A stretch of DNA of 32,000 nucleotides from Acaryochloris marina MBIC11017 (GCF_000018105.1 NC_009925.1:1620001-1652000), one strand, 5' to 3'. Positions 4,123 through 25,677 are shown, numbered from the stretch's first letter. The notes: generated from the letters alone by a model not told the origin. Made by a program: numbers and translations.

Positions 4123-4773
4123 ATGTACCTATTTTTAGATACCGCAGATATCAAGGCCTGGGATTTTTGGTTGAGTAAGGGCTTATTCTATGGCGTTACA
4201 ACCAACCCGACCTTATTGGAGAGAGCCCATATTCCTTGCACCCTTGACCAACTCCAAGGGCTAGCCACAGCTGCCTTTCAAAGAGGTGCTCAAGAAATTC
4301 ATTTACAGACCTGGGGGGCTGAAGTTGAAGATTTAGTTCGTCGGGGAACTGCGATCGCAGCTATTGATTCCCGCGTAGTCGTCAAAGTACCTATAACGTT
4401 GACAGGCACAGAAGCTGCAGCCCAATTAATCCAACAAGGAATACGGGTAACTTTAACTGGAGTTTATGCAGTTCACCAGGCATTGATTTCTGCCGCCTTG
4501 AAGGCTGACTATGCCGCCCCTTACTTAGGACGCATGACAGATCTGGGACAAGACGGTAGGCAAGGTATCATTTCGATGCAAAGAGGTCTGACCGGAGTCA
4601 AGAGTTCAACCAAGATTTTAGTTGCCAGTATTCGCAGCATTGAAGACATTACTGCTCTTACTCAACAATCCCTCGATACGTTTACGGTATCACCTGCGAT
4701 CGCAGAACAACTCTTCCAAGTCGATGCAACCATAGATGCAGCGTTAGCCTTTGAAAAAGCAGCACAAGGCTAA
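4123..4773 (+). CDS. fructose-6-phosphate aldolase / short transaldolase (TalC/FSA family)
   Basis: The 216-aa ORF carries LDTAD, GVTTNPTL, VVVKVPIT (Schiff-base Lys context) and YAAPYLGRMTD, the pattern of class 3B transaldolase/FSA enzymes. Confidence 0.8.
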   Translation: MYLFLDTADIKAWDFWLSKGLFYGVTTNPTLLERAHIPCTLDQLQGLATAAFQRGAQEIHLQTWGAEVEDLVRRGTAIAAIDSRVVVKVPITLTGTEAAAQLIQQGIRVTLTGVYAVHQALISAALKADYAAPYLGRMTDLGQDGRQGIISMQRGLTGVKSSTKILVASIRSIEDITALTQQSLDTFTVSPAIAEQLFQVDATIDAALAFEKAAQG

Positions 4774-7700
4774 TGGGATTCAATGCCTAATGCTTCTGCA
4801 GTAATCGGCAGCTTGACAATAAAAGTTGTGCCTTGATCTGCAATACTCTCAAAATCGATCGTCCCCCGATGCAGCTCGACGGACTTTTTAACAATTGCGA
4901 GACCTAGTCCTGTACCTTGAATTTGTCCAACATTTGTAGCGCGATGAAATGATTCAAACAGATGCTGCTGATCAGCTTCAGGAATCCCAATTCCTTGATC
5001 TTTTATGAAAAAGGTTGCTTCTTCTTCATTTACATTGACCTGAAATCGAACACTAGTACTTTCAGGAGAATATTTAATGGCATTGGACAATAAGTTACTG
5101 AGGATTTGTCTCAAAATTTTCTCGTCTGAATAGACCTCATGTTGATTCCAAAAAAATTCAAACTCAATCTGTTGATCGCGTTTAGTATTGAGCTGAAATT
5201 CTTCGACAAGACTACTGCAGAAAACTTCAAGGTTAATTAGTTTAGGATTAAACTCAACTTTATTGACATCAGCTTTACTCAAAACTAAGACATCATCTAG
5301 AAGTCCAGTCATATGCTTAACATTCTTTTGGATACGATCTAGATAAGTATGTTGCTTATTAGTATCCCACCCTTGTCCATAATGCTTGATTAACTCTGTT
5401 GTCCCTAAAATAGCTGTTAAAGGTGTTCGGAATTCATGGGAAGTCATCGAGATAAAGCGAGATTTCAATTCATTAATTTCTCGCTCAGCTTGTTCTCTAG
5501 CTTGAGATTGCTGTAAATCTTCATATAAATAGGCATTCTCAAGGGAAATAGCAGCTTGGGCACAAAGAATTCTAATGGTCTCGAGATGATTTTCCTTAAA
5601 GGCATCGTATACTAAATCATTCTCTAAATATACAATCCCTATTAATTTGCCTTGACTAATGATAGGCATTCCTAGTAAAGACTTTGGAAGATTAAAGTAT
5701 ATTTCCAAATTATAGTTTTCTTTATGCTCCTCTCTTGTGTCATTAATAACGACATTTTCTTTAGTCCTAAAGATATAGTTTAAAATGCTATGAGGGATAT
5801 CATTCCTATTCTTAATCAATTCTGTTTTGATTTTAACGATAGGTGAACTATTCATTGAAGCCGTTGCCTCTATATATAAATTTTCATCTCTATATAATAT
5901 TAAATAAGCTTGAGTTGCGCCAGCCAATTCAATGAGATACTCCAAGATTTTATTTAATAGTTTATCTCGTATAATTTCCTCGGAAATTGCCTGAGAAGTT
6001 TCTATGACAGTTCTTAAATCAATATTCCCCAGAGTTTCTGAAGATGATAGTTTTACGTTGTTTCCATCTTTCTGATATGAAGTAAAAATTTGCTTAAATT
6101 CCTCACTAATATTTGAATATCTATATTTGATATCTTCAATTTTTGATAACGCACCCCAATTAAAATAGGCATAACAAGATTCCTTGAAATATAAAGCAGA
6201 AATCTTAAAATTCTTATTGCTGAAATAAAATTCAGCTGCTAATTCATTGGCAAGAGCTTCCTCTTGTAAGAAAAGATTAGATTTTGAAGATTCGATAGCT
6301 TTATCGTAATATTTAGAAGAAGAACTAAAATTATTTATAACTCTATAATACTCAGCTTTAATCAGAAAATACTTATTGCTAAAATTCTCAGGGCAAGCTT
6401 TAGCCCATTTTTTAAATCTATGAATAATGCGATTAACTATAATTAAATACTTGCGACGGACAATAATTTTTTGCGTACTACACAAAGCCAATAAAGTTAA
6501 ACAATAGTAAAAATAATAAATTGCTATGTAAATTATTCCGTTTACACCATCAATATGATCATTCAGAAGATTAGATAAATGCAAAGCCTCATCAAATTTT
6601 TTATAGTAAAAAGATAAAATCATCTTTGCCAAATAAAAAGGAAAAATTATTAAATCGTTTGATGAATGAAGAATGTCAGAGCTTTGCTCTTCTTCATTAA
6701 AAAAACTACCTTCAAGTAAGCTCACATCTAGTTTAGTATCTACATAATTCTCAGATACTTGTGCCCAAATGCTTAAATGGGTACACTGAAAGTATTGCTT
6801 ATAACTCGACAAAATATCGATATACTTAAAATTCTCGTCAATAACTTCGGAAAGAGGTTTCCCGCTAAAAAAAGATAAAATGCAATAAAAAGCAGAGCAA
6901 TGACCTAGATTTTCAACATCACCAATTTCTAACGCGTAATTAGAAGCATTAGATAGATGGGTTAATAAACTTCTAATTTGATACTTCCATGGTTTATTAA
7001 AAGCATAGCCTACTAAATAAATAGCTGGTTTTATCTCATAGCTAGAAAACTTTTCAAGCAACTGCAATGATAAATCGCTATAACTACAACATTTTTCTAT
7101 ATCATTAAAAACAACATTATAAATTGTTCCATAACTATTATAAGCAAAGCCAGAAACTGGAGAATTACCATAGGATATAGATAGATTTACCATTTTTAAT
7201 ATAGCTAATGGAAAAAGATTAGGCCTAGCAACAAAAGCTGCGGGTACAACAGTCATAAGTACCCGCATTGCAGCAAGACTTTTTTCATCACTCATCACTG
7301 GTAACTCTGTTAAGCTCTCTATTGTAAGATTTCGATGTGATATTTTTGCTCTTAATACATTAAATAGTAGCTCTATTTTGTTAGGGTTATTCGGAAGTTT
7401 TACATTTAAAAGATTTAATGCTTCAATTGCTTTATCTATTGATTGCAAAGGTTGATTCTGAGTAAAACAGAAAGCAATTTGCAACTCATAGACAGAAATT
7501 TTAATCGACAAAGATTTTGCATTATGAATTAATTTTATAGCTAATGAATCAGCTTGATTTCTTTCTGAGCTTATATATAAGCACTCTAAAAGTGAAAGAT
7601 ATAATTCTGTACTAGAGTTATTAAAATTTTCTAAGCAATATTTTTTTGATAATACTGATGCTGTTTTATAATATTCACAAGCTGATTCATAAGCTGCTGC

Positions 7701-9985
7701 TAATTTAGATTTATTACCTGCTATAAAATTTAATTCAGCAAGCTCATTTTTCTTAATTAAATCATCAACAAGATGAATTCCTTTATTGAAATGCTTTATA
7801 ATTTCAAATAGCTTTTTATCAAAAGCTGAATCTCTGTATTTTCTCAACAAAAAATCTCCAATCAATAAATGCAGAGAGCTTTTTTCAGACTCAGGTATAC
7901 TGAGATAAATAGCTTGTTGAATATAATCATGTACAAATCTAAAATATATATTAAAATGAGGTTTAATGTCATCTTCAAGAAGTAAGTTAGACTCATAAGA
8001 ATCTTGTGTAGAGACAATCAATCCAGAATCAATAGCAGCGAACATAGTCTCTGTTAATTCTGATTTAGTCTTATGGCTAATACCCGCAAGAGTAATCAGA
8101 TCAAACTGACTACCTATACATGAACAATATTGAATTAAATCTTGTGTTTGTTTAGGTAATTTCTGTATATTCCTAGATAGTAGTTCTAAAACACTAAAGT
8201 CCGTAATACTACTTTTCAATATTCGTTCTATATTCCAATTCCATTTTTCTACAGCATAATCAAAATATATATACTTATCTTGATATAAAGTTTTTAATAG
8301 CTGAATAAGAAAAAACGGATTACCACCAGACTTTTGAAATATAAGGTTTGCTAAAAAATCAATATATTCAAGGTCGCAATTAAGAGTATCTGCGACAAGA
8401 TCTTTTGCAGAAGATAAAGATAATGGCTGCAATTCAATACTATGATTAATAAGATCTTTCTTATTTAAATCACTCAGTACTCTATTGAAAGGGTGTAATT
8501 TACTTATTTCAACATGACGGTACGCTAGTATAAATAAAATATACTTACTCTGCTTACTATTAGCTAGGCTAGTAAGCAACTCTAGAGAAGCAAAATCAGC
8601 CCACTGCAAATCATCCAAGAATAAAACTATAGGATGCTTCTTGCTACCAAAAGATTGTATAAATGTCTCTAGTGTCTGAATAAATATGGCTTGTGATTCT
8701 GGAATAACTTGTCTAATCTCAATCTGATCAATTTGTAAGACTATATTAAGTTCAGGAATAATATTAACTAATAGATTAATATTCTTTCCTAAAGAACTGA
8801 TAAATCTTTCTCTCCAGTAATTTATATCATTACTATTACTTCGCAATATTTTTCTAATAGCAATAGTCAAGCCTTGAACAAAGCCATAATAAGGAATATT
8901 CTTATGGCTTTGTTCAAATTTACCGCTAATTTCTATACCACAATGATCTGAATTACTTTTATTGATACTCTTTATAAGAGATGTTTTACCAACGCCAGCA
9001 TTTCCTTTCACAAGGATTATTCTTTTTTGACCAATAAAAGTACTTTTAAAGGCATTATTTAGGAGCTTAATTTCATTTTCTCTGCCATATAATTTATTAG
9101 GGATACTAAATTGACTAATAGCTATACTTTGTCTCGTTTTAAGAATAAAATCAGTATTATTAATAGATAAGTTTTTTACACATTGCTCTAGATCTACTAA
9201 TAGTTCTAATGCATTCTGATATCTGTCCTCAGCATTTTTCTGTAATAACCTCATAATTATTTGAGAAATCTGTTCAGGGATAAAATCATAAATATTGTGA
9301 GGAGTATCAGGAATAACAGATAAGTGCATATGAATAACCTCAGAGACTTTATGAGAATAAAATGGTAATCGACCAGTTAAAATCTCATAAAAAGTAATTC
9401 CTAATGAATATAAGTCAGTGCGATAATCAATTGTTCGATCTATTCTTCCAGTTTGTTCAGGAGATAAATAAAGTGGAGTCCCATTAATAATCTCTTCATC
9501 ATCAATACTTATTTTCTCTTGCGTATTTTCTGCGGCTATACTAAAGTCGGTCAACTTAACTTCATTAGTTTTTGGATTATAAATAATATTCGAAGGATTA
9601 ATATCTTTATGAATAATACCTTGCAAATGAACTTCATTTAAAGTTTTAGAAATCTGGCAAGCTATCTCCAAAAAAGTCCTTATATTTACGCGATTTTTAG
9701 ATATATATTCCTTCAGTGTACATCCTTCAAAATACTCTTTTATAAACGCATAATTATTGTTGTTTGCTATAAAAGAGTGTGCTTGTATAACTCCATTTGA
9801 ATTTAATTTATTAGTGATTTCAAATTCATTTTTAAGGCTAGAAATATCAGAAAATGATGGATATTTTTCACTTAGTCTCTTGGCAATAAATAATTTACCA
9901 CTAGAGGTATTTTTACTATATAAATAGTAATATTTTCTTTAGAGTAAAGTATTCTTTGAAACTCAAAGTTATTTATTTCAATCAC
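4770..9985 (-). pseudogene. HstK-type multidomain sensor: Ser/Thr kinase, AAA_16/STAND-like P-loop ATPase, helical repeats, GAF and His kinase (HisKA+HATPase). The N-terminus is split by an apparent 1-nt frameshift.
   Basis: The long frame 4770-9938 carries HKDINPSN, TDFS and GTPLYLSPEQ (kinase subdomains VI-VIII). It also has the P-loop GNAGVGKTS (about 8979-9005) and Walker B LFLDDLQWAD. The H-box is SHEFRTPL, with the His codon at 5436-5438. The N-box is LSNAIKYS and the G-boxes are DQGIGI and GTGLGL. Kinase subdomains I-II (VIEINNFEFQRILYSKENITIYIVK) sit in another frame upstream, from a GTG near 9985. The exact start is uncertain. Confidence 0.7.
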
Positions 9986-10299
9986 TTTTAAATCCTCTAT
10001 CAGAATCTTCCTAAAATTATGATTATTTTTAAAAAAATTATTTGTTTTTATATAAACACCATTGTGATAGATGGCGATCGAGTTTTTCTTATAAATTGTA
10101 GTGAAATCATATTATTATTTTATTGTATATTAAGACCAGAAAATGCTAATATTTGCATTAAAAAAGTTGCTTAAGGTATTTTTATTAGAATTAAAAATAC
10201 TAGCTAATATTCTAGCAAATTAAGTTTTTTATTTATCTATCTCAACCCCGAATGAATAGCAGATTTCAACATGGCTTGAAAGATACTTCGAAATATTGA

Positions 10300-10992
10300 A
10301 AACCTTAACGATTAAGGTATGCCCTAGACCTCACAGGACGTTTTGCCATGAAATGATTCAAACGATGCCAAGCGCAACTAGAAGCGCGAAACGATTGTTG
10401 GTCGTGCATCAAAAAAGAGTGGATATGCTTAACCTATAGGAAGTTGAGTTGTCCTTTTCACTAATGCAATGCCTTCTATGTTGTTATCCTAGGACCCAAA
10501 CAAGGCAAGATCAATAAAAGCAGATAACACTATTGTTGCTTGAACTTTTTAAAATACCCTCAGTGAGACCTTAGCAACCCTCGATTATCGTAATAAGATT
10601 CCAGGTGCTTCCTTAAACCTTGCTAGAGGGATTAGTCAGCGAGGGTTGTCTCGTATTACAGGTTAAGCTTTTAGGCCCTGGGTGAGCGTGGTCTGTTCTA
10701 TTGGCCATAAAACCCAAAAGAAACACAACCAAGAAGTGCAGGATGTTGTGACTGGCGGCACTAATACTGATGAGTTATGGCCCTTGGATATAAAAAGCAA
10801 AAGCACGTTTAATCGTAGGAGTTGCGTATAGGCAACTGTTGGGTAACACTGAGTCTTGCTAAAGATAATGGTTTGATGCACAGGGGTAGCGTTAGTAAAT
10901 ATACCAACGAGCTAACTCAAGCGTTGATTGAGAATACTGAAGGCAAAACTGCCTGTCGTTAAGAACACCACATCTTGGGCTTTTGGGGCTTA
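10300..10992 (+). mobile_element. degraded transposase-gene remnant (possibly IS1-like), cut at its 3' side by the IS5-family insertion
   Basis: One frame over about 10628-10830 reads GISQRGLSRITG*AFRPWVSVVCSIGHKTQKKHNQEVQDVVTGGTNTDELWPLDIKSKSTFNRRSCV*. An HTH-like segment followed by a DELW motif resembles transposases I remember, but in-frame stops are present. The family call is weak. Confidence 0.3.
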
Positions 10993-11009
10993 GAGGCTGT
11001 TTGAGAAGT
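10993..11009. repeat. left terminal inverted repeat of the IS5-family element
   Basis: GAGGCTGTTTGAGAAGT is the exact reverse complement of 11874-11890. Confidence 0.85.
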
Positions 11010-11071
11010 GAGTAAAGCTCTCAAGGTACTAATCTGTCAATACACAAACATTGGACAGGACTTTGAGAGCA

Positions 11072-11872
11072 ATGCCTACAGCATATGATAGCGACCTCAC
11101 CACCCTCCAATGGGAATTACTTGAACCTTTGATTCCTGCTGCTAAACCTGGAGGTAGACCTCGCACCACTGATATGCGCAGTGTTCTCAATGCCATTTTG
11201 TATCTCGTGGTTACGGGTTGTCAATGGAGACAGCTACCTCATGATTTTCCCTGTTGGTCAACGGTCTATAGCTATTTTCGAAGGTGGCGTGATGATGGGA
11301 CTTGGGTCCACATCAATGAACATCTACGCATGCAAGAGCGGGTGAGTGAAGACCGTCATCCGAGTCCCCGTGCTGCTATCTGTGATGCTCAATCAGTCAA
11401 AGTTGGTAATCCTCGGTGTCACTCGATTGGGTTTGATGGTGGAAAACAGATTAAGGGGCGTAAACGTCATGTGCTCGTTGATACTTTAGGACTGGTTCTG
11501 ATGGTGATAGTCACTGCTGCCAATATCTCTGACCAACGAGGGGCCAAAATACTGTTTTGGAAAGCTCGACGCCAAGGTGCGAGTTTGTCCCGTCTAGTTC
11601 GGATATGGGCCGATGCTGGCTATCAAGGACAAGCTTTTATGAAGTGGGTAATGGACCGTTTTCAATATGTCTTGGAAGTGATCAAACGCTCAGATAATCT
11701 AGCGGGGTTTCAGGTTATTCCCAAACGATGGATTGTAGAACGGACGTTTGGGTGGTTACTGTGGTCTCGACGTCTTAATAAAGATTATGAGGTGCTGACC
11801 AGAACAGCTGAAGCGCTCGTATATGTAGCGATGATTCGACTCATGGTTCGAAGGCTGACTGAAGAAGCTTGA
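11072..11872 (+). CDS. IS5-family DDE transposase (DUF4096-type HTH plus DDE_Tnp_1-like core)
   Basis: From the ATG at 11072 the ORF reads MPTAYDSDLTTLQWELLEPLIPAAKPGGRPRTTDMRSVLNAILYLVVTGCQWRQLP. The DDE candidates are ICDAQSVK, IWADAGYQG and VERTFGWL. The supplied ORF begins 7 codons earlier at a TTG. Confidence 0.85.
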   Translation: MPTAYDSDLTTLQWELLEPLIPAAKPGGRPRTTDMRSVLNAILYLVVTGCQWRQLPHDFPCWSTVYSYFRRWRDDGTWVHINEHLRMQERVSEDRHPSPRAAICDAQSVKVGNPRCHSIGFDGGKQIKGRKRHVLVDTLGLVLMVIVTAANISDQRGAKILFWKARRQGASLSRLVRIWADAGYQGQAFMKWVMDRFQYVLEVIKRSDNLAGFQVIPKRWIVERTFGWLLWSRRLNKDYEVLTRTAEALVYVAMIRLMVRRLTEEA

Positions 11873-11873
11873 A

Positions 11874-11890
11874 ACTTCTCAAACAGCCTC
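11874..11890. repeat. right terminal inverted repeat of the IS5-family element
   Basis: ACTTCTCAAACAGCCTC is the exact reverse complement of 10993-11009. Confidence 0.85.
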
Positions 11891-12713
11891 TTAGGAGAGA
11901 TTGGCACTTAAAACATAAATATCCTTTTTTCAAGGAGTGTTGGTTTGACGATAGGACGAAACGGCTAGATGCTCTGCTTGCTGAGTCGTCAGAGAGCTAG
12001 CTCACCCAAGGCATTTTTCAGTTGTTGGTTGTGGTCTGAAGCCATACCAGTCACTTTGTGGAAAAAGAATGACCGAATTCTGAGTTGACATAAGTCTGAA
12101 TTTGCTGACGTTCAGTCATCTCAACCCCTTCCAGCGTCTACAAGCTTGCTGTGTCGCTTTCCTCATAAAGTAATTGTGAAGATGGGTGTCCTAGTTTTTG
12201 AGTTGAACTGCTGTTTGGGAATGGATGGAGACTGTTAGGCAACACATGTATCCTGAACTTTTTCACATCAATCTGCAAAGGTGACATATTCCATAATCCA
12301 CAGATAACTTCTGTATTTTCAGTGCAGAATCGTTAAGCCTTCACTTGGAAGAAAGAAAGTATATCCCTTATGGCACCATGTTAGAAAAATTCAAAGCTCT
12401 AGATTTGCGAATCTAAAACTTTTTTGGTGTCAATCTTTTTAATGATATAGATAAAAATCTTACTGATAAGAGAAAATTTTTGATTTCATATAGCAATCAA
12501 CTAAATATCACCCCCTAATATTTAGAGATTGAGTATTTTGTAGCAATTAATACGAATTTACTAGCATTAATATGCTTTTTAAGCAAAAAAATACATATTT
12601 CTTAACATATATATTATTTTTATCAGTATATATGCGGATATGTGTCGATATAGATATACGTGAATTAGGTGAATTTGCGGATGATAGCTAATAGTAAAAC
12701 ACATAAATTATTT

Positions 12714-12751
12714 CTTATAGAAAACATATACTATCATATGTTTTCTATAAG
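12714..12751 (+). promoter_or_regulatory. perfect 16-bp-arm inverted repeat (operator or leader hairpin) upstream of the 893-aa gene
   Basis: CTTATAGAAAACATAT (12714-12729), then the loop ACTATC, then ATATGTTTTCTATAAG (12736-12751), followed by CTAATTTTTC. It lies 83-120 bp upstream of the ATG at 12834. Confidence 0.45.
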
Positions 12752-12760
12752 CTAATTTTT

Positions 12761-12776
12761 CTATCAATATTGATAG
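12761..12776 (+). promoter_or_regulatory. 16-bp perfect palindrome, candidate operator
   Basis: CTATCAATATTGATAG is self-complementary. It lies 58-73 bp upstream of the ATG at 12834. The CTATC half-site also occurs in the loop of the neighbouring hairpin. Confidence 0.4.
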
Positions 12777-12833
12777 TTTCCTAAAACTAAATCAGTCAGA
12801 TAATCTGCAATATCAAAATAACTGAGAGATTTC

Positions 12834-15515
12834 ATGAAAGAGATTCTTGAGCTAATTGAAAATAATCGTTCAAATTTTAGTGAATTAAACTTATTCCGTT
12901 TCTTACGTAATCAAAGTATTAATCCAGTTAAAAGACTAGCATTTGCTCCATGTATATCTCCTTTTGTGATGAGCTTTGGAGATTTAAATAAGTATGTACT
13001 GCAGCAGCATCCTACCTCAGACAAAATACAAGAAATTATTAATCAACACACTGCAGAAGAACATAATCATTGGAATTGGTTTTTAGAAGATATTCAGGCT
13101 TTAGGTTATGATTTTAATATAAATTTCAATAGTACTTTAAAGTTTCTTTGGAGTGAAGAAACAAAATCAGCACGCTGGATCTCATATCAGTTATATCGAT
13201 TTATTTATGATGCTGATTCTATTCAGAAACTTGTTGTTCTTGAAGCTATGGAAGCAACTTCTAGTGTTTTCTTCTCAGAAATAAGTAAAGTTGCAGAAGA
13301 ATTATATAAAACTAAAAGTATTAAGTGTAGATATTTTGGAGAACATCATCTAAAGGCTGAAGAGAGTCATAGTGCTTTTATGCCTGAAACTGATGATTAT
13401 ATAAATAAAATATTTATTCCACAAAAAAGAAAAGAAGAGCTAGCGACTATTGTCAATCAGATTTTTAATCTTTTTTCTGATTTAACAGAATCTTTCTTTC
13501 AATATGCTATAAAATATCAAGATAATTCTTTTCCTCTAAACTCATATTGTTCACAGAGCTATGACTATGAGTATATAATTATTGGTGCTGGACCAGCTGG
13601 ATTGCAATTAGGCTATTTTTTAGAAAATTCTAACCGAGACTATACTATTCTAGAATCCGGAGACTCCCCTGGTACTTTCTTTAAAGATTATCCCAGGCAT
13701 AGAAAACTAATTTCAATTAATAAAAGAAACACTGGCTATAGTGATCCAGAAATCAATCTTCGGTGGGATTGGAATTCACTTCTTACTCAAGATTATTCCA
13801 AGAATTTCACAGATTATAGCAAAAAATACTTCCCTTCAGCTGATAATTTAGTTGAATATTTCAACGATTATGCCAAAGAATTCTCGTTGAATATTAAGTA
13901 TGGAGTGACAGTTGAGAAAATATCCAAAAATCAAGGCTTTGTTCTATTGGATTCTTATGGTAATACTTACTCTTGCAAATACTTAGTTATTGCTACTGGA
14001 TGTCCTAAGTTATATATTCCAGAAATCAGTGGTATTGAACTAGCTGAGAAATATACTGATGTATCAGTTAATCCAGAGGATTTTGAAAATCAGCGAGTTT
14101 TGATTATTGGCAAAGGTAATTCTGCCTTTGAGACAGCCGATAATTTGATTGATACAGCTGTTACTATACATATTTGTAGTCCAAGTCCAGTAACTATGGC
14201 ATGGAAGACAAAGTATGTGGGCCATTTGCGAGCTGTAAACAATAATTTCCTCGACACATATCAACTTAAATCACAGAATGCCATCCTTGATGCTGAAATT
14301 CTGGGTATTAGGAAGAATAGAAATGAATATGTTGTGAATGTCAAATATTCTCATGCGAATGGAGAAAGTGAAGAGCTAGTTTATGATCGAATCATTCTTT
14401 GTACAGGTTTCCGTTTTGATGATTCAATCTTTGATGTAACATGTAAGCCAGCTCTAACAATTAATAATCGTTATCCAGCTCAGACTAGTGAATGGGAATC
14501 AACTAACATTCAAGATCTCTACTTTGCTGGCATTTTGATGCACATGAGAGATTTTAAGAAGAAACAGTCTGGTTTTATTCATGGTTTTCGCTATAACATC
14601 CGTACACTCCATCGAATATTTGAACACAAGCACCACCATGCACCTCTGCCATCTCGTAAAATTCCTCTATCTCCACAAGCAATAACAGATTTTATTATCG
14701 ATCGCGTCAACACCAGTTCCAGCTTATGGCAGCAAACGGACTTCATGTGCGACTTAATTACGGTTTCTGATGATAGTCAAGAAGTTCAATATTTTGACGA
14801 ATTAACCAAAGATTACATTCATGAGGGTTACCTAGGTAGACATGAACACTACTATACAGTTTCCCTAGAGTTTGGCCAGAATGTTGCTGATATTACAGAT
14901 CCATTTGCTATTGATCGAGTCCATAAAGAGGATGCTTTTAATTCTTCTCAAAGTGAGTTCATCCATCCTGTTATTCGTCGATTTCACAAAAATACACTCA
15001 TAGCAGAACATCATGTTATCGAAGATTTAGCGAGTGAATGGAAAGAAGACGTTCATATCCAACCGCTGTTGAAATTTATGACTGAGCAACTAACACACTC
15101 TCAAGGCATCGGAGCACATCTCCTTGAAGCGGGACTGCTAACTTCAGAACAGCTAGAAGTAGCCTTAGAAGACCAAGAAAGGCAAGCAACCGCTCGTTTA
15201 GGTGAGGTTATTCAAAAGCGCGGTTGGGTGAAAGAGCGGACCATCCAGTTCTTACTCAACCAAGTCAACAACACGCTAGTCGATCATCCTGCGTTAAACG
15301 CCTGTACTCAGCTGGGGAACAATCTAGTTGAAGCAGGATTACTAACCTCAGCACAAGTTGATGAAGCCATACAAGAGCAGAAAATCTCTAACAAGCGATT
15401 AGGAGAAATTCTAGTGAATCATGGCTGGGTCAATTCACAAACCATTGAATACATGATGAAACATCTCTCCAAAGCAAATGCTACAGCTCAACCAGAAGTT
15501 GCTGTGATGAACTAA
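12834..15515 (+). CDS. three-module fusion: heme-oxygenase-like diiron oxidase domain, FAD/NAD(P)-dependent (FMO/FOXRED2-like) oxidoreductase, and two MshEN/T2SSE_N-type units
   Basis: The ORF has 893 codons. The N-terminal domain carries AEEHNHW, VLEAMEATS and GEHHLKAEESHS. The flavoenzyme part carries GAGPAG (13584-13601), VIATG, GKGNSA (14109-14126), LCTGF and SGFIHGFRYN. The C-terminal units read IGAHLLEAGLLTSEQLEVALEDQ / RLGEVIQKRGWV and LGNNLVEAGLLTSAQVDEAIQEQ / RLGEILVNHGWV. A terminator hairpin follows the stop. Confidence 0.7.
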   Translation: MKEILELIENNRSNFSELNLFRFLRNQSINPVKRLAFAPCISPFVMSFGDLNKYVLQQHPTSDKIQEIINQHTAEEHNHWNWFLEDIQALGYDFNINFNSTLKFLWSEETKSARWISYQLYRFIYDADSIQKLVVLEAMEATSSVFFSEISKVAEELYKTKSIKCRYFGEHHLKAEESHSAFMPETDDYINKIFIPQKRKEELATIVNQIFNLFSDLTESFFQYAIKYQDNSFPLNSYCSQSYDYEYIIIGAGPAGLQLGYFLENSNRDYTILESGDSPGTFFKDYPRHRKLISINKRNTGYSDPEINLRWDWNSLLTQDYSKNFTDYSKKYFPSADNLVEYFNDYAKEFSLNIKYGVTVEKISKNQGFVLLDSYGNTYSCKYLVIATGCPKLYIPEISGIELAEKYTDVSVNPEDFENQRVLIIGKGNSAFETADNLIDTAVTIHICSPSPVTMAWKTKYVGHLRAVNNNFLDTYQLKSQNAILDAEILGIRKNRNEYVVNVKYSHANGESEELVYDRIILCTGFRFDDSIFDVTCKPALTINNRYPAQTSEWESTNIQDLYFAGILMHMRDFKKKQSGFIHGFRYNIRTLHRIFEHKHHHAPLPSRKIPLSPQAITDFIIDRVNTSSSLWQQTDFMCDLITVSDDSQEVQYFDELTKDYIHEGYLGRHEHYYTVSLEFGQNVADITDPFAIDRVHKEDAFNSSQSEFIHPVIRRFHKNTLIAEHHVIEDLASEWKEDVHIQPLLKFMTEQLTHSQGIGAHLLEAGLLTSEQLEVALEDQERQATARLGEVIQKRGWVKERTIQFLLNQVNNTLVDHPALNACTQLGNNLVEAGLLTSAQVDEAIQEQKISNKRLGEILVNHGWVNSQTIEYMMKHLSKANATAQPEVAVMN

Positions 15516-15545
15516 GTTAATTCGTTCTTTCTTTGGAATAATGAC

Positions 15546-15580
15546 CTCTCCTCCATATGTCTGTGGAGGAGAGTTTTTTT
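15546..15580 (+). terminator. Rho-independent terminator of the 893-aa gene
   Basis: The stem is perfect over 10 bp: CTCTCCTCCA (15546-15555) pairs with TGGAGGAGAG (15564-15573). The loop is 8 nt, followed by T7 (15574-15580). It lies 31 nt after the stop codon. Confidence 0.75.
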
Positions 15581-15647
15581 GTAGTTGAGTCCCTATTACC
15601 AACTCAAGCAAAGACAAAATACTCATCATCAAGTGTAGGAATTATTG

Positions 15648-17672
15648 TCAGGATTTGAGGTAGGTATAGCTTCTGAGACTACGCTCATAATTTTTGAGGA
15701 GCAGCTGGGCTTCTGGTAATGTGATGTGCTGTTCTTGCAATGCCACCTCAGACTGTTTGCGAATTTCTTCTATCAGATCATCGGCGTCATATTGGACATA
15801 TTCCAGCACCTCGGTAATTGTGTCCCCCTTAACCACATGGGCAATGTGATACCCCATCGGAGTCAAATCAATATGGACGACATTGGTATCGCCAAATAAA
15901 TTATGCAGATTACCCATGACTTCTTGATAGGCACCGTTCAGAAACATCCCCAAATAATAGGGTTCGTTGGGCTTTAAGGTATGTAGCTCCAGAATAGGTT
16001 TGGTATCACGAGAATAGATAAATTGATCGATTTTGCCATCACTATCGCAGGTGAGATCGACGAGGGTTCCCCTTTGGGTGGGTTCTTCTTCTAAGCGGTG
16101 AATCGGCATAATCGGGAACAGCTGATCAATGGCCCAGGTATCAGGGGCAGATTGAAACACCGACAGATTCGTGTAATAAAGCGACGCCATTCGGCGTTCA
16201 AGATCTTCTAAGTCGACAGCCACATCATCGTCTTTTCGTGCGATCGCAAGTATTCTCTGACAACAGGCCCCACAGAGTCGCTCGACCCTAGCCCGCCCTT
16301 CCAGGCTCAGATAGCCAAACCCAAACAGGCTAACCGCTTCTTCCTTGAACTGGAGAGCATCATGATAGGCTTCTTGATAGTTCTCGGTATCAATAGTTTG
16401 ATAGGTTTCCCAGAGATTCCGAATAATCAGATGTTCGTCGGCCTGAGCGGGTTCTGGGGTGAGGTTGAGGGTGTCGCTACTGCCCAGTACATTCATAATC
16501 AGGACAGACTGGTGAGAAGCAATCGCCCGTCCACTTTCACTCACTAGGGTAGGCACAGGGATATCTGCTTCCGCGCAAGCTTCCTTCACCTCAGCCACGA
16601 CATCATTGGCGTAATTCTGCATATTGTAGTTTTTAGACGCCGCCGAGTTACTTTTAGACCCGTCGTAATCAACCCCCAAGCCACCACCCACATCTAAGAA
16701 CTTCATATTGGCCCCCAATCGGGCCAGCTCTACATAGATTTGACTGGCTTCTCGCAGGGCATCTTTGATGACGCTAATGGCTGAGATTTGAGAACCAATA
16801 TGGAAATGAAGCAGCTGCAAAGAGTTCAGTAGATTCGCGGCCCGCAGATGCTCGACAGCGGCTACAACTTCTGGAATGTTGAGGCCAAATTTAGCGCGGT
16901 CCCCCGCACTCGTCCCCCATCGGCCAATCCCTTTGGCGCTGAGCTTGGCACGAACACCCAAAATCGGCTGAATCTGGAGCCGACGGCTAGCTTCGATCAC
17001 CAGCTCCACTTCTTCGAGTTGTTCAATCACAATAATCGCCTGATGGCCCAAACGCTGGGCCAGCATAGCGGTTTCGACATATTCCAAATCTTTATAGCCA
17101 TTGCAGATCAGCAACGCACCAGAGGTTTTGAGGGAGGCAATGGCAATCAGTAATTCTGGTTTGGAACCCGCCTCTAATCCAAACTGGTGGGGCTGCCCAA
17201 AACGGACCAAGTCTTCTACAAGATGACGCTGTTGATTACATTTAACGGGAAAAACGCCTCGGTAGCGGCCGGGATAGCTGTAGCGTGCGATCGCTTTGGC
17301 GAAACAAGCGTTTAATCGCTCAATTCGATCCGCCAAAATGTCTGAAAATCGGATCAGCAAAGGGGCATGGATATCTCGCTGCTGCAGGGACTGGACCAGC
17401 TCATAGAGGTCTAAAGAGCCCCCTCGATCAGCCTTGGGCGATACGGTTACATGGCCCGCTGCATTAACGGAAAAATAGGGTTCTCCCCAGCCCCGAATGC
17501 GGTAGAGCTTTTCGCTTTCCTCAATCGACCATGCCGCATCTGTCTGTTCAGGGTTTGGGTCTGATGTCAGCGGTCGTTCTCGCATCGGCGCTGAATGACC
17601 ATTCTCCAACTCTGCCGCTAGAGTTTGGGAAATTTTGGTAGCCCTATCTTCACGGTTTCGACCGTTTTCCAT
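15648..17672 (-). CDS. speA: biosynthetic arginine decarboxylase
   Basis: The ORF is 674 aa. It carries WSIEESEKLYRIRGWGEPYFSVNAAGHVTV, FPVKCNQQ (PLP Lys context), and DVGGGLGVDYDGS, the canonical SpeA motifs. Confidence 0.9.
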   Translation of the reverse strand: MENGRNREDRATKISQTLAAELENGHSAPMRERPLTSDPNPEQTDAAWSIEESEKLYRIRGWGEPYFSVNAAGHVTVSPKADRGGSLDLYELVQSLQQRDIHAPLLIRFSDILADRIERLNACFAKAIARYSYPGRYRGVFPVKCNQQRHLVEDLVRFGQPHQFGLEAGSKPELLIAIASLKTSGALLICNGYKDLEYVETAMLAQRLGHQAIIVIEQLEEVELVIEASRRLQIQPILGVRAKLSAKGIGRWGTSAGDRAKFGLNIPEVVAAVEHLRAANLLNSLQLLHFHIGSQISAISVIKDALREASQIYVELARLGANMKFLDVGGGLGVDYDGSKSNSAASKNYNMQNYANDVVAEVKEACAEADIPVPTLVSESGRAIASHQSVLIMNVLGSSDTLNLTPEPAQADEHLIIRNLWETYQTIDTENYQEAYHDALQFKEEAVSLFGFGYLSLEGRARVERLCGACCQRILAIARKDDDVAVDLEDLERRMASLYYTNLSVFQSAPDTWAIDQLFPIMPIHRLEEEPTQRGTLVDLTCDSDGKIDQFIYSRDTKPILELHTLKPNEPYYLGMFLNGAYQEVMGNLHNLFGDTNVVHIDLTPMGYHIAHVVKGDTITEVLEYVQYDADDLIEEIRKQSEVALQEQHITLPEAQLLLKNYERSLRSYTYLKS

Positions 17673-18487: not shown

Positions 18488-19192
18488 TTAAGGTTGGCGA
18501 ATAAAGACCTGTGTAAAGAAATATTCCTCCCCCTGGCGGATAACGCCTACCCCCGTTTCTGTGACTTCCGCCCGTAGCATATTCCGTCGATGGCCAGGGC
18601 TATCCCACCATCCCATAATCGCCTGGGCCACTGGATCTGGCGCATTTTCATTCAAAGCCAAATTTTCGGCCACCAGATTGAACCGAACCCCGGCATTCAA
18701 TAAGCGTTCCAATGCCGTATTGCCTTGGGGATCAGCATGGCTAAAGAAGTTGTTGGCTGCCATATTTTGGCTATGTCTGCGAGCCACTTTAGCAACATCT
18801 CCATTCCACTGGAGGGGCTGTAGACCATAGGACTGGCGAATATCATTCACTTCTGTATAAATCAGCTGGGATAAATTGCTTTGAGCAACAGCTGTTGAAT
18901 CGCGCCTCGTTTTCTGAGAAGGAATCGGCTCAGGCGCTTCTAAGACAGGTTCTGGGGCAGGACGAGGGACTGACTTTCGCCGTCGGGGCTGTCGACGAAT
19001 GGTCGGCGTTTGTCGGGGCGTTTTACATTCAAAAGGGACCGGAAACGGCAATTTAATGGGGAGAGCGATACACCCCACCAATAACCAAGACAATGACTTT
19101 TGAGCACCTAGCCGGGTGCGTTGTCCCTTGTTCCCAACCTCATCCTGTTCCAACGCCGTCAACGACACCCGAGATAAGCTGGACTTAGCCAT
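18488..19192 (-). CDS. CAP/SCP (YkwD-like) domain protein with an N-terminal hydrophobic anchor
   Basis: The C-terminal domain carries LQWNGDVAKVARRHSQNMAANNFFSHADPQGN and GWWDSPGHRRNML, the CAP-domain signature. The Pro/Arg-rich linker is preceded by SLSWLLVGCIALPI. The start is taken at the ATG at 19192, because the track start at 19237 is a TTG. Confidence 0.65.
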   Translation of the reverse strand: MAKSSLSRVSLTALEQDEVGNKGQRTRLGAQKSLSWLLVGCIALPIKLPFPVPFECKTPRQTPTIRRQPRRRKSVPRPAPEPVLEAPEPIPSQKTRRDSTAVAQSNLSQLIYTEVNDIRQSYGLQPLQWNGDVAKVARRHSQNMAANNFFSHADPQGNTALERLLNAGVRFNLVAENLALNENAPDPVAQAIMGWWDSPGHRRNMLRAEVTETGVGVIRQGEEYFFTQVFIRQP

Positions 19193-19277
19193 AGGAATGG
19201 GTCGCGCACGTAATGAATTGGGAATTATTTTACCCAATAAACCGTGAACCCACCTGAGATATTGCTGAGTATTACGC

Positions 19278-24368: not shown

Positions 24369-25106
24369 TTATCTGCCATTTGGGTCGGTGTAATCAGGTG
24401 CAATATGGCGAATGTAGTCAAGTTCTAATTCCAGCATCGGTATTTTTTCGTTCAGCTTGAACCAAATCACGTTTTCGATCCAAAACCGATATATAAATTC
24501 GTCAAAAGATTTGGCTGCGATTGAAGTCGATTCCATACAGTTCTGAACTAATTTTGGAGAAGCCTCAAAGTCAATTGAGTCTAGAAACGGTTCATCATAA
24601 TCAGCCGAAGAAGAAATAACGAAATGTGGTGCATTCGTTGGGAGATAGATATACCAACAGACGCAAACTTGCTGATCATTTAAAAATCTAAGAATGAAGT
24701 CTCCTTGCCGAAAGGGACTTTCAATAATTCTTTCTGGTAAGTCAAAGTAACAAGCTGTGCAAGAAGGAATACGCTCTTGAAATTCAAATGACCGAGCCAA
24801 AGTGAGAAATGTACTAGGCAATTCGATCCCAAGGGAAATAGCCTCCCTTTCTATTGTTTTTAGTTGCCTAGCGTATTCGTATTTCGCTTTCTCATCTAAG
24901 CGATAATCCTCCATCTCTGCGTCAATAGTTGGATGGAGTGGAGGTAGCCAAGCGCAGTCTGGAGCAAGTTTAGGAATCGGAGGCAGCAGATCATAGGCAG
25001 ACGATGAGTACGTTGGTTTTGTTGGACGAATGTCGCCCAGGCCAAAGGTAACCCAGTCATATTCAAATAGCGATTCAGCTCTCATACTGCTGACATCCCG
25101 AATCAT
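24369..25106 (-). CDS. hypothetical protein, SMI1/KNR4 (SUKH)-like immunity-protein flavour
   Basis: The ORF is 245 aa. Its central block LPSTFLTLARSFEFQERIPSCTACYFDLPERIIESPFRQGDFILRFLNDQQVCVCWYIYL resembles SUKH-type proteins from memory only. GC is lower than in its neighbours. Confidence 0.4.
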   Translation of the reverse strand: MIRDVSSMRAESLFEYDWVTFGLGDIRPTKPTYSSSAYDLLPPIPKLAPDCAWLPPLHPTIDAEMEDYRLDEKAKYEYARQLKTIEREAISLGIELPSTFLTLARSFEFQERIPSCTACYFDLPERIIESPFRQGDFILRFLNDQQVCVCWYIYLPTNAPHFVISSSADYDEPFLDSIDFEASPKLVQNCMESTSIAAKSFDEFIYRFWIENVIWFKLNEKIPMLELELDYIRHIAPDYTDPNGR

Positions 25107-25141: not shown

Positions 25142-25654
25142 TCACACCTTCTTAAGACCATACATAAACTCTCCAGCAATCAGAGAACCTTGAGCAGACT
25201 TGAACTCTGTCTTATATCGAACAGGAAAGAGACTTGTTGATGTACCTATGACTGATTGGAGCTGTTCTGCTGTTCGCTGATTCTCTAGTTCAAAAAGTGG
25301 GTTTCGGCTAAAAATAAACTCTTCTTCTCGGTAAAAGAGGGTTAAACAGAATGCGTCCTCATTCATAATAAAACCCTTAAGCTCTAAGCCATTATTGGTT
25401 GTAATGGTTGCTCGGATGAAGATTCTCATACGGTCTGGGAAAGGGTTGTACTCAAGTAACGTGTACACGCAGTGTTCATTTCCAGGCGAATTTTTTTCCA
25501 ATAAATGAAGCACTTTTTCTCGATCCAGTCCCCAGCGCTCCAAGTCTGCAATTTCCTCCCAGTCATAATGTTCTGACCATACCGGGTAATCATCAAAGTC
25601 TTGCTCCGAGAGTTGACTTTGAGGAAGTACTCGAAACTTAGCTATGTTTGACAT
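25142..25654 (-). CDS. hypothetical protein (possible immunity-like orphan)
   Basis: The ORF is about 170 aa from MSNIAKFRVLPQ. The start is moved to the second ATG to avoid overlapping the divergent gene. I recognise no catalytic motif. Confidence 0.35.
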   Translation of the reverse strand: MSNIAKFRVLPQSQLSEQDFDDYPVWSEHYDWEEIADLERWGLDREKVLHLLEKNSPGNEHCVYTLLEYNPFPDRMRIFIRATITTNNGLELKGFIMNEDAFCLTLFYREEEFIFSRNPLFELENQRTAEQLQSVIGTSTSLFPVRYKTEFKSAQGSLIAGEFMYGLKKV

Positions 25655-25677
25655 GCCTGCTTGCAACATTAACTCTT

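Follow-up and report, generated by a model that had tools for sequence, protein, structure and literature searches.

A predicted AetD/SktA-family diiron oxidase fused to a flavoenzyme and tandem MshEN_N units in a hyper-variable locus of Acaryochloris marina

The gene AM1_1657 (ABW26678.1 / WP_012162197.1) occupies positions 12834..15515 (+ strand) of the stretch of Acaryochloris marina MBIC11017 DNA analysed here (32,000 nucleotides, hereafter the window). It encodes an 893-residue protein in which a predicted oxidase, a flavoenzyme and two MshEN_N-like units are fused, the last being a module of receptors for cyclic di-GMP (c-di-GMP). Our analysis places the N-terminal module in the AetD/SktA family of heme-oxygenase-like diiron oxidases. 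This assignment is the new element in an architecture that was catalogued in 2016 as 'UNK - TrxB - MshEN_N', with AM1_1657 (ABW26678) as an entry and Acaryochloris and Pseudanabaena as hosts (Wang et al. 2016, PMC5013675, Supplementary Table 4), and it fills in the 'UNK' domain. Also new are the association of the gene with a giant dual kinase and the cassette in which the two diverge together. We give an even chance to the view that the whole protein is a self-contained, regulated three-module oxidase.

The open reading frame (ORF) begins with ATG, runs for 893 codons and has in-frame stops just 5' of its start; a frame of this length in DNA of ~33% GC cannot be a product of chance. Its limits and length are exactly those given by the first-pass annotation, which was made from the sequence alone. 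An exact-sequence look-up identified the window protein as AM1_1657, for which databases offer only the labels 'FAD-dependent pyridine nucleotide-disulphide oxidoreductase' or 'NAD(P)-binding domain-containing protein'. The identical protein is found on 14 contigs, including a 6.5-Mb A. marina chromosome, and the architecture recurs in other complete genomes, which rules out a pseudogene and also an assembly chimera, a flaw that the first-pass annotation had foreseen as fatal to its reading. That annotation did not know the three modules as a described combination. They were in fact on record, as the supplement of Wang et al. 2016 prints residues 750-829 of AM1_1657 and lists the protein as 'predicted c-di-GMP binding', and at least 43 fused clusters occur in cyanobacteria; the architecture forms a sizeable family, although not a functionally characterised one. 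The searchable literature holds nothing on AM1_1657 or its neighbors beyond Wang et al. 2016, and neither the AetD and SktA papers nor a 2026 superfamily review (PMC13108848) mentions fused forms.

The oxidase domain and its partner flavoenzyme

Residues 1-232 (12834..13529, + strand) can be assigned to the AetD/SktA family from their sequence, modelled fold and metal ligands. A phmmer search of solved structures matches residues 1-229 to AetD over its full length (E 1.5e-42), and BLASTP makes SktA the closest characterised relative (43% identity, E 6e-76), with AetD at 33% identity. The AlphaFold (AF2) model of AM1_1657 has a mean predicted local distance difference test score (pLDDT) of 84, mostly >90 for residues 1-230, and Foldseek superimposes its oxidase part on the AetD crystal structures 8ji7/8tww/8twt with template modelling (TM) scores of 0.89-0.92 and root-mean-square deviations of 1.7-2.0 Å; this is the seven-helix fold of the heme-oxygenase-like diiron class that had been predicted. 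In AetD, H79, H172 and E176 bind Fe1 and D76, E140, E176 and H179 bind Fe2 (PMC10654658). Residues E76, H79, E140, H172, E176 and H179 of AM1_1657 match these positions one-to-one, giving a complete 3-His/3-carboxylate set that is kept in the family alignment and in all alleles compared. The same six ligands had been proposed from the motifs AEEHNHW at residue 74 (E76, H79), VLEAMEATS at 135 (E137, E140) and GEHHLKAEESHS at 169 (H172, E176, H179), all of which lie where they were placed; E137, also flagged, has no ligand counterpart in AetD, yet is invariant in the family. An expected match to the Pfam family Haem_oxygenas_2 (PF14518) fell below threshold (17.7 vs 28.9 bits). The PF14518 model does not capture the AetD clade, and AetD-like neighbors likewise lack a Pfam match.

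The residues that hold the substrate in AetD, where F44 and F48 stack against the indole ring, while Y167 forms a bond to the carboxylate (PMC11611611, PMC10654658), are invariant in AetD, SktA, AM1_1657 and five other alleles. At the second-sphere positions that differ between AetD (M139, A142, S214) and SktA (T139, T142, F214; PMC13108848), AM1_1657 is mixed, with an AetD-like M139 and SktA-like T142 and F214. The replacement of the bromine-contacting S214 by F214, together with the absence of a halogenase gene, argues for an unhalogenated substrate. Nor did we see classical biosynthetic genes near AM1_1657 in the window, as the first-pass annotation had remarked. The product is not readable from the sequence, because AetD and SktA give different products from near-identical active sites; SktA, which alone besides AetD has been characterised, yields skatole, cyanide and CO2 from (5-bromo)tryptophan (PMC11869266). 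The remaining homologs have no assigned function, as the AetD and SktA authors noted. The AetD-like family is large: clustering at 50% identity gives 609 clusters, the species-level genome set contains 325 loci, and the 80 loci retrieved from these 325 are essentially all cyanobacterial. It also includes other architectures (P0256, P0277, P0290, P0292, P0299, P0303, P0304, P0326, P0341, P0344; P0234, P0269, P0238), with two tandem oxidase domains in proteins of ~500-535 residues and with the oxidase domain C-terminal to a further N-terminal part in proteins of ~390-608 residues.

The second module consists of a two-Rossmann core that would bind flavin adenine dinucleotide (FAD) and NAD(P)H (residues 245-575, 13566..14558, + strand) and a family-specific C-terminal alpha/beta extension (residues 576-752, 14559..15089, + strand). 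The core matches Pyr_redox_3 (PF13738) at residues 248-566 (E 2.7e-50, 171.8 bits vs a threshold of 30), as expected for a two-dinucleotide-fold enzyme, and the motifs GAGPAG (251, the FAD motif), ATG (387), GKGNSA (426, the NAD(P)H motif), LCTGF (522) and HGFRY (583) were all confirmed at the positions first given. A thioredoxin-reductase-type disulfide reductase, as the 'TrxB' label would have it, is ruled out, since residues 240-752 contain neither CxxC nor CxxxxC; the only conserved cysteines of the flavoenzyme, C523, C537 and C639, are far apart in sequence. In alignments, the extension carries the invariant motifs LWQQT, DPFA..R.HK, HP..R and EHH.IED.A.EW.E..H..PL, with many invariant His, Glu and Asp residues, and it is modelled at a pLDDT of 79. 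A search for a known fold ended without a Foldseek match in the PDB (best E 0.46) or a PDB sequence match. The extension may represent a novel type of site for binding a metal or a substrate.

The distribution of the modules indicates that the oxidase and the flavoenzyme belong together. Among the 120 best homologs of AM1_1657, ~27 clusters combine the oxidase, the flavoenzyme and two MshEN units (~890 residues; Acaryochloris and relatives) and 16 have the fusion with one MshEN unit (~830 residues; e.g., Pseudanabaena PCC 6802). One fused cluster lacks MshEN, a few have the flavoenzyme with one or two MshEN units, and many are stand-alone flavoenzymes of 525-545 residues that are 60-67% identical over the full length. 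In every stand-alone locus examined (L001, L020, L049, L055, L062, L079, L086, L087, L088), a gene for an AetD-like protein of ~240 residues lies directly upstream of the flavoenzyme; the hosts are Nostoc NIES-3756, Rivularia, Calothrix, Lusitaniella, Cyanocohniella, Aliinostoc, Scytonema, a Spirulinaceae metagenome-assembled genome and Nostoc PCC 7524. Given this adjacency, the two constitute a conserved functional pair, for which the fusion serves as a 'Rosetta stone', and comparative genomics shows the flavoenzyme as the obligatory genetic partner of the oxidase, either fused to it or encoded immediately downstream. In the Spirulinaceae genome (L087, 1-6578) two tandem AetD-like paralogs precede the flavoenzyme, and just upstream lie genes for a CHASE2-guanylate/adenylate cyclase and for a cNMP-binding mechanosensitive channel, a further setting with second messengers.

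Within the fused family the modules differ in their identity to AM1_1657. Among the proteins P0002-P0009, for example, P0006 is 79% identical in the oxidase and 61% in the flavoenzyme, P0002 is 40% and 81% identical in the same modules, and P0008 has MshEN units at 97% and 92%, a flavoenzyme at 68% and an oxidase at 47%. Monophyly of the fused oxidase domains was rejected, as a neighbor-joining tree, crude and with a topology on which we do not rely, mixes fused with stand-alone forms. The discordant identities imply recombination at module boundaries and, taken with the tree, suggest a shuffling of modules.

In the mechanism we favor, the oxidase module would bind unhalogenated L-tryptophan through its amine and carboxylate on Fe1 and activate O2 to a peroxo-diferric species, after which the alanyl side chain would be broken or rearranged, steps that are modelled on the two characterised relatives. 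A small indole product (skatole-like or nitrile/aldehyde-like) would be released along with one-carbon by-products such as cyanide and CO2. The flavoenzyme would pass electrons from NAD(P)H through FAD to re-reduce the diferric cluster, making the enzyme self-sufficient; this is the least secure step. The two MshEN_N units would bind c-di-GMP and couple the output of the enzyme to the cellular level of this messenger, and the protein would act together with the divergently encoded dual kinase, an association that is observed and a functional role that is presumed.

We lean only slightly toward the flavoenzyme as electron supplier, with a tailoring monooxygenase almost as likely. In the latter case a two-step pathway would operate, in which the flavoenzyme is an NAD(P)H/O2 monooxygenase that oxygenates the indole product of the diiron domain (skatole to an oxindole or hydroxy derivative, for example, or indole to indoxyl) or pre-oxidises the amino-acid substrate, and the fusion channels a volatile or toxic intermediate. 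As an account of the whole protein we hold this pathway to be a serious contender, albeit below an even chance. By profile, the closest relatives of the flavoenzyme with structures are type II flavin-containing monooxygenases (FMOs; 4usq/4a9w, also 4usr; E ~1e-14), which are true monooxygenases, and the Pyr_redox_3 match is accompanied by weaker Pfam matches to Lys_Orn_oxgnase and FMO-like families. By structure, Foldseek places the core closest to YpdA/Bdr (TM 0.77), followed by 3d1c (0.74) and the SMFMO structure 4a9w (0.72), with TrxR-like FNR also close. YpdA/Bdr (7A7B) is an NADPH-dependent bacillithiol-disulfide reductase, and that the best fold matches are NADPH-dependent reductases favors the electron supplier. 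The class B FMO family PF00743 stays below threshold (18 vs 22 bits) and the FMO signature FxGxxxHxxxY/F is absent between the two dinucleotide motifs, which tells against the two-step pathway; the only match to the pattern, FAGILMHMRDF (564), comes later, beyond the second Rossmann fold and at the FAD motif near the C-terminal end of the core. The first-pass annotation of this module as a flavin monooxygenase thus holds for its FAD/NAD(P)H two-Rossmann fold, but its monooxygenase identity is not established, since it is equally close to the reductases and is not of the SktC type.

The skt cluster, in which the oxidase is accompanied by a flavin monooxygenase with a proposed role in skatole epoxidation, offers a precedent for the two-step pathway. 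SktC was nevertheless rejected as a counterpart of the flavoenzyme, to which it is 22% identical over ~200 N-terminal residues only, without homology beyond the dinucleotide fold. SktC-like genes are moreover present together with the AM1_1657-type flavoenzyme in three loci (L049, L062, L086), and the two are therefore not interchangeable; the coexistence of a separate tailoring FMO favors a reductase. The same is true of conservation, as the flavoenzyme varies far less than the oxidase and is insensitive to the oxidase allele class: it remains 62-93% identical while the oxidase pocket changes, which would be odd in an enzyme fitted to the oxidase product. The in vitro work on the relatives is also consistent with an electron supplier, since Fe(II) and ascorbate were supplied in the SktA assays, and one or the other was proposed to regenerate the diferrous center of AetD (PMC11611611 and PMC11869266).

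Several observations weigh against the mechanism as we have drawn it. The AetD and SktA clusters lack an AM1_1657-type flavoenzyme and both enzymes work without one, so that the flavoenzyme is not a universal requirement. The nearest solved relatives by profile are, as noted, FMOs, and the ~180-residue extra domain at 576-752, with its invariant polar residues, resembles a substrate site of the flavoenzyme's own, which could provide the pocket that a two-step pathway calls for. The oxidase domain is only 33-43% identical to AetD or SktA, which themselves differ in product despite near-identical active sites, and the searched literature offers no biochemistry on any fused member and does not mention an AM1_1657-type flavoenzyme family.

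The MshEN_N tail

Unit 1 of the tail (residues 757-811, 15102..15266, + strand) consists of motif I at 758-781 (GIGAHLLEAGLLTSEQLEVALEDQ), a 6-residue spacer and motif II at 788-811 (RLGEVIQKRGWVKERTIQFLLNQV), and unit 2 (residues 825-878, 15306..15467, + strand) of motif I at 826-849 (QLGNNLVEAGLLTSAQVDEAIQEQ), a 5-residue spacer and motif II at 855-878 (RLGEILVNHGWVNSQTIEYMMKHL). The NCBIfam model NF053729 ('c-di-GMP_motif, MshE-related') matches twice, at 44.0 bits for unit 1 and 62.1 bits for unit 2, against a curated cutoff of 38 bits and a score of 86.7 bits for the Vibrio cholerae MshE control; the tail is thus made of two MshEN_N units, as first proposed. Unit 2 aligns to residues 8-63 of V. 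cholerae MshE. Helices are predicted at 759-765, 771-783, 789-795 and 801-811 in unit 1 and at 823-833, 839-851, 856-862 and 868-878 in unit 2 (model pLDDT 65-85).

Stand-alone oxidases of 306-405 residues can carry MshEN units as well, so that either partner by itself, or the two when fused, may bear the tail. This is good comparative evidence that the tail would regulate the oxidase/flavoenzyme system. No c-di-GMP turnover genes were detected in the window.

The agreement with the published MshEN_N definition, two 24-residue motifs with a 5-residue spacer (Wang et al. 2016, PMC5013675), is less complete. None of the four half-motifs fits the pattern of these authors in its strict or its relaxed form: position 1 is G758 in unit 1 and Q826 in unit 2 in place of Arg, position 24 is V811 and L878 in place of Gln, and the spacer of unit 1 has 6 residues. 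Position 7 of motif II in unit 1 is Q794, and all Gly and most hydrophobic motif positions are kept. Across 58 relatives with 80 units in all, no Gly or hydrophobic core position is lost, motif I is often without its Arg, and motif II always reads 'RLGxxLxxxGWVxxxTIEY(L/M)Mx(K/H)V', never with the terminal Gln. The deviation is by these alignments a trait of the family. The same variant of motif II occurs in Cyanothece cce_1044 and about a dozen other A. marina proteins (Wang et al. 2016, PMC5013675), and no cyanobacterial 'GWV...T' variant has been measured for c-di-GMP binding. In A. marina MBIC11017 the 'GW(V/I/L)xxxT' variant is carried by AM1_0779, 1361, 1845, 2351, 4892, 4963, 6001, 6196, H0057 and others, and a c-di-GMP measurement on one such protein would calibrate the whole set.

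These deviations raise the possibility that the tail is a pair of MshEN_N-derived helical bundles that no longer bind c-di-GMP and serve in dimerisation or docking (e.g., to the kinase) or bind another ligand, a reading that we rate as plausible but distinctly below an even chance. It draws on the failure of the four half-motifs, on the family-wide loss of the terminal Gln and frequent loss of the Arg, and on the margin of unit 1, which at 44 bits is close to the cutoff of 38. Measured proteins give it some weight, as Ser in place of the motif Arg abolishes binding by PilF GSPII-A, in which His or Arg at Gln positions had to be reverted, and XpsE lost binding with a set of changes including R38G and Q61V. 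In other measured MshEN_N domains, however, it is G11 and G40 that are critical (G11L abolishes binding and G40I costs 72-fold), and these belong to the Gly and hydrophobic core kept in every unit of the family, while Q32A or Q61A costs only ~10-fold (Q61A ~12-fold). A CheA-linked MshEN_N with R1M still binds c-di-GMP at 2.6 µM, both units of AM1_1657 pass the curated model, and Wang et al. predicted binding for this protein. On balance, c-di-GMP binding by the tail seems slightly the more probable outcome, likely with micromolar rather than nanomolar affinity. The gating by c-di-GMP that the first-pass annotation envisaged is still only a prediction, given the failure against the published motif.

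A hyper-variable locus with a giant dual kinase

The first-pass annotation took AM1_1657 for a stand-alone unit and missed a conserved partner, a giant dual kinase encoded next to it in the divergent orientation at 4770..9985 (- strand; listed ORF 4770..9671, 1633 residues, with a putative GTG start near 9985). This protein combines a Ser/Thr kinase, AAA_16, a helical/TPR region, GAF, HisKA and HATPase_c. Such a dual kinase lies within 8-9 kb of an AetD-like gene, always on the opposite strand, at 63 of 91 loci, in Acaryochloris, Microcoleus, Nostoc, Scytonema, Lusitaniella and other genera. It is divergent and upstream in 27 of the 63, as in Acaryochloris, Microcoleus and Scytonema, and convergent and downstream in 36, as in Nostoc, where it follows sktC. 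The published skt cluster also has a giant dual kinase as neighbor, which the main text of the skt paper, as far as consulted, does not mention. Zhang et al. 2007 (PMC2176072) counted 38 such kinases across the filamentous nitrogen-fixing strains of their survey, from which we roughly estimate the probability of chance adjacency at a few per cent. A complete Microcoleus genome (L021, 1559-10818) and ~20 sibling loci carry a minimal version, in which the kinase is divergent from an AetD-like oxidase of 247 residues and a Trp_halogenase-family protein of 545 residues, and which is without a flavoenzyme of either type.

The locus was compared in seven Acaryochloris genomes, the window and six others (L003, L089, L090, L091, L092, L093), all of which have the same slot: LdpA, AAA/PTPase, TAL, the kinase (-), the fusion (+) and SpeA (-). 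The flanking proteins are 83-100% identical, the kinase sensor only 37-89% and the oxidase domain 38-89%. In sliding windows the kinase transmitter (HisKA and HATPase) returns to 83-94% and the flavoenzyme and MshEN parts to 70-85%. The result is a low-GC, hyper-divergent cassette at ~5500-13530 that comprises the kinase sensor, the intergenic DNA and the oxidase domain, and whose edges coincide with module edges. GC content drops as divergence rises, from 50% in SpeA (flanks ~50%) to 45% in the MshEN tail, 36% in the flavoenzyme part, 30% in the kinase and 29% in the oxidase part. A recently acquired island, which low GC might suggest, is ruled out by the presence of the same slot and the same GC dip in all seven genomes; the locus is instead hyper-variable and long-standing. 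A milder second divergence hotspot is formed by a gene for a CAP/cysteine-rich secretory family protein (18488-19237, - strand), which is 76% identical to its counterpart in A. marina CP064923, next to SpeA and GltB at 94-96%.

Kinase sensor and oxidase vary together. Their pairwise identities are correlated with r 0.96 (exact Mantel p 0.003), and neither tracks the backbone: the window and L090 share 97% in TAL and 41% each in sensor and oxidase, while L089 and L093 share 83% in TAL and 89% in both sensor and oxidase. An advance prediction, that the L093 kinase would group with the L089 kinase, was borne out. Metal ligands and tryptophan anchors are retained in every allele, and pocket residues 139 and 146, the latter an indole-clamp residue, vary with allele class. 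This rapid divergence together with the neighboring sensor kinase suggests a regulated maker of a signal or toxin rather than an enzyme of ordinary metabolism.

One form of this idea is a signal-receptor cassette, in which the oxidase, with or without the flavoenzyme, would make a strain-type-specific molecule that is sensed by the variable AAA/helical/GAF region of the kinase, both having diversified into allele classes. Polymorphic signal-receptor pairs are known from the pherotype loci comQXP and agr. The kinase adjacency across many genera and in varied arrangements (set against the number of such kinases in the 2007 survey), the co-variation against the backbone, the coincidence of cassette and module edges with conserved modules on either side, and the allele-specific residue 146 all agree with such a cassette. 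The variable segments of kinase and oxidase abut, however, and physical linkage alone could produce their co-inheritance without functional coupling. The sample moreover comprises no more than about three allele classes, kinases of this class have no known ligand, and in this genome the kinase gene has a 5' frameshift and the shared intergenic region an inserted element, as described below. We regard the cassette as unlikely, if not negligibly so. Its fullest version, a pherotype-like system in which a tryptophan-derived molecule characteristic of the allele class (an indole derivative and/or cyanide) is made under c-di-GMP control and sensed by the cognate dual kinase, is more doubtful still.

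Far less probable again is an anti-phage or abortive-infection islet in which the kinase, as a STAND-like kinase/ATPase sensor, would trigger tryptophan depletion or cyanide release. A hyper-variable low-GC islet between conserved housekeeping genes, a kinase with AAA_16 and a long helical sensor region, and cyanide as a known by-product of SktA are what such a system might display, but PADLOC was negative for the fusion and gave only generic Ser/Thr-kinase-domain matches for kinase residues 1-275, the window holds no other defence genes, and the fixed chromosomal position is not that of a mobile defence island.

In MBIC11017 itself the link between kinase and enzyme may be impaired, owing to an insertion sequence (IS) in the shared intergenic region and a frameshift at the 5' end of the kinase gene. 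The IS4/IS5-family element (10990..11897, + strand) encodes a DDE transposase at 11051..11872 and has terminal inverted repeats of ~18-20 bp (TTAGAGGCTGTTTGAGAAGT / TAAGAGGCTGTTTGAGAAGT). It is present only in this genome and absent at the same site in L003, L089-L091 and L093. The first ~28 codons of the kinase are in a different frame from the rest, with the shift in an A-run near 9905-9915, whereas the alleles in other genomes are uninterrupted (1738-1740 residues). The gene could be a pseudogene or be subject to phase variation by slippage, or the shift could be an error of sequencing.

The claim that AM1_1657 has its own palindromic leader and a strong terminator was sustained in that both elements exist, but the palindrome is not kept between alleles. 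It is perfect and AT-rich, with 16-bp arms (12714..12751), and lies 83 nt 5' of the ATG; a role as conserved operator is ruled out because the 300 nt upstream are unalignable between alleles (51% column identity). Each allele has AT-rich inverted repeats of its own upstream, to which we attach little weight in AT-rich DNA. Promoter-like matches are no commoner than in shuffled sequence. A riboswitch or other known RNA was rejected, with no Rfam match at E <= 1 in the 960-nt leader or elsewhere in 9500-15800. Downstream, an intrinsic-terminator-like element (15546..15583, + strand) lies 30 nt past the stop codon, with a hairpin at 15546-15573 (12-bp stem, 6 GC) followed by T7, and makes a convincing candidate for the AM1_1657 terminator. 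Elsewhere in the window, two adjacent ORFs at 24369-25106 and 25142-25669 (- strand; 245 and 175 residues) have no Pfam match.

Significance and comparison with known systems

AetD and SktA have demonstrated that tryptophan can be converted by a single small diiron enzyme, either to a nitrile or to skatole and cyanide. The fusion and the conserved gene pair name an overlooked partner for this enzyme class, a flavoenzyme that is possibly its missing physiological electron donor. The tail moves between these partners and, if it does bind c-di-GMP, would be one of few examples in which a second messenger acts directly on a small-molecule oxidase to control it. The co-divergence of a kinase sensor with the oxidase in close strains points to signaling or antagonism and away from housekeeping. 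Should the pherotype-like reading be true, it would describe a system of cell-cell or self-recognition in cyanobacteria and provide a first physiological role for hundreds of orphan AetD-like oxidases beside such kinases.

A comparison of AM1_1657 with AetD, the nitrile synthase of aetokthonotoxin in Aetokthonos hydrillicola (PDB 8JI2-8JI7, 8TWN/8TWT/8TWW), shows the same family, fold over ~230 residues, ligand positions, F44/F48/Y167 and M139, with E76 in place of D76, T142 in place of A142, F146 in place of I146 and F214 in place of S214. AetD is a free-standing protein of 239 residues from a halogenase/P450/tryptophanase cluster, in contrast to the N-terminal module of an 893-residue fusion described here. 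With SktA and the sktABC cluster of Nostoc punctiforme NIES-2108, AM1_1657 shares T142, F214, a flavoenzyme and a giant dual kinase nearby on the opposite strand. Unlike that cluster, it lacks the SktB halogenase, its partner is not of the SktC family, and it is fused and carries MshEN units. SznF likewise combines a heme-oxygenase-like diiron domain with a further catalytic domain in one polypeptide (PMC13108848, a review in which no flavoenzyme-fused member appears), but is a 3-His/4-carboxylate N-oxygenase with a cupin, whereas AM1_1657 has the AetD-type 3-His/3-carboxylate set together with flavoenzyme and receptor modules.

The flavoenzyme shares with the small type II FMOs (SMFMO 4A9W, 4USQ/4USR, 3D1C) and YpdA/Bdr (7A7B) the two-dinucleotide architecture, the GxGxxG and GxGxxA motifs, the Pyr_redox_3 match and TM scores of 0.72-0.77 over a 330-residue core. 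It differs from them in being <21% identical, in its extra conserved domain of ~180 residues without a fold match, in the lack of CxxC and of a canonical FMO motif, and in always being genetically coupled to an AetD-like oxidase. Like the MshEN/MshEN_N receptors V. cholerae MshE (5HTL), Thermus thermophilus PilF GSPII-B/C and Escherichia coli NfrB, the tail has the 53-residue two-motif module; it passes NF053729. Tandem (MshEN_N)2 arrangements and enzyme fusions are both precedented, NfrB being an MshEN-controlled enzyme. Unlike these receptors, AM1_1657 has the cyanobacterial motif II variant without terminal Gln and a motif I without Arg in both units, and whereas the known modules sit on a secretion ATPase or a glycosyltransferase, its predicted c-di-GMP-binding units are attached to an oxidase-flavoenzyme.

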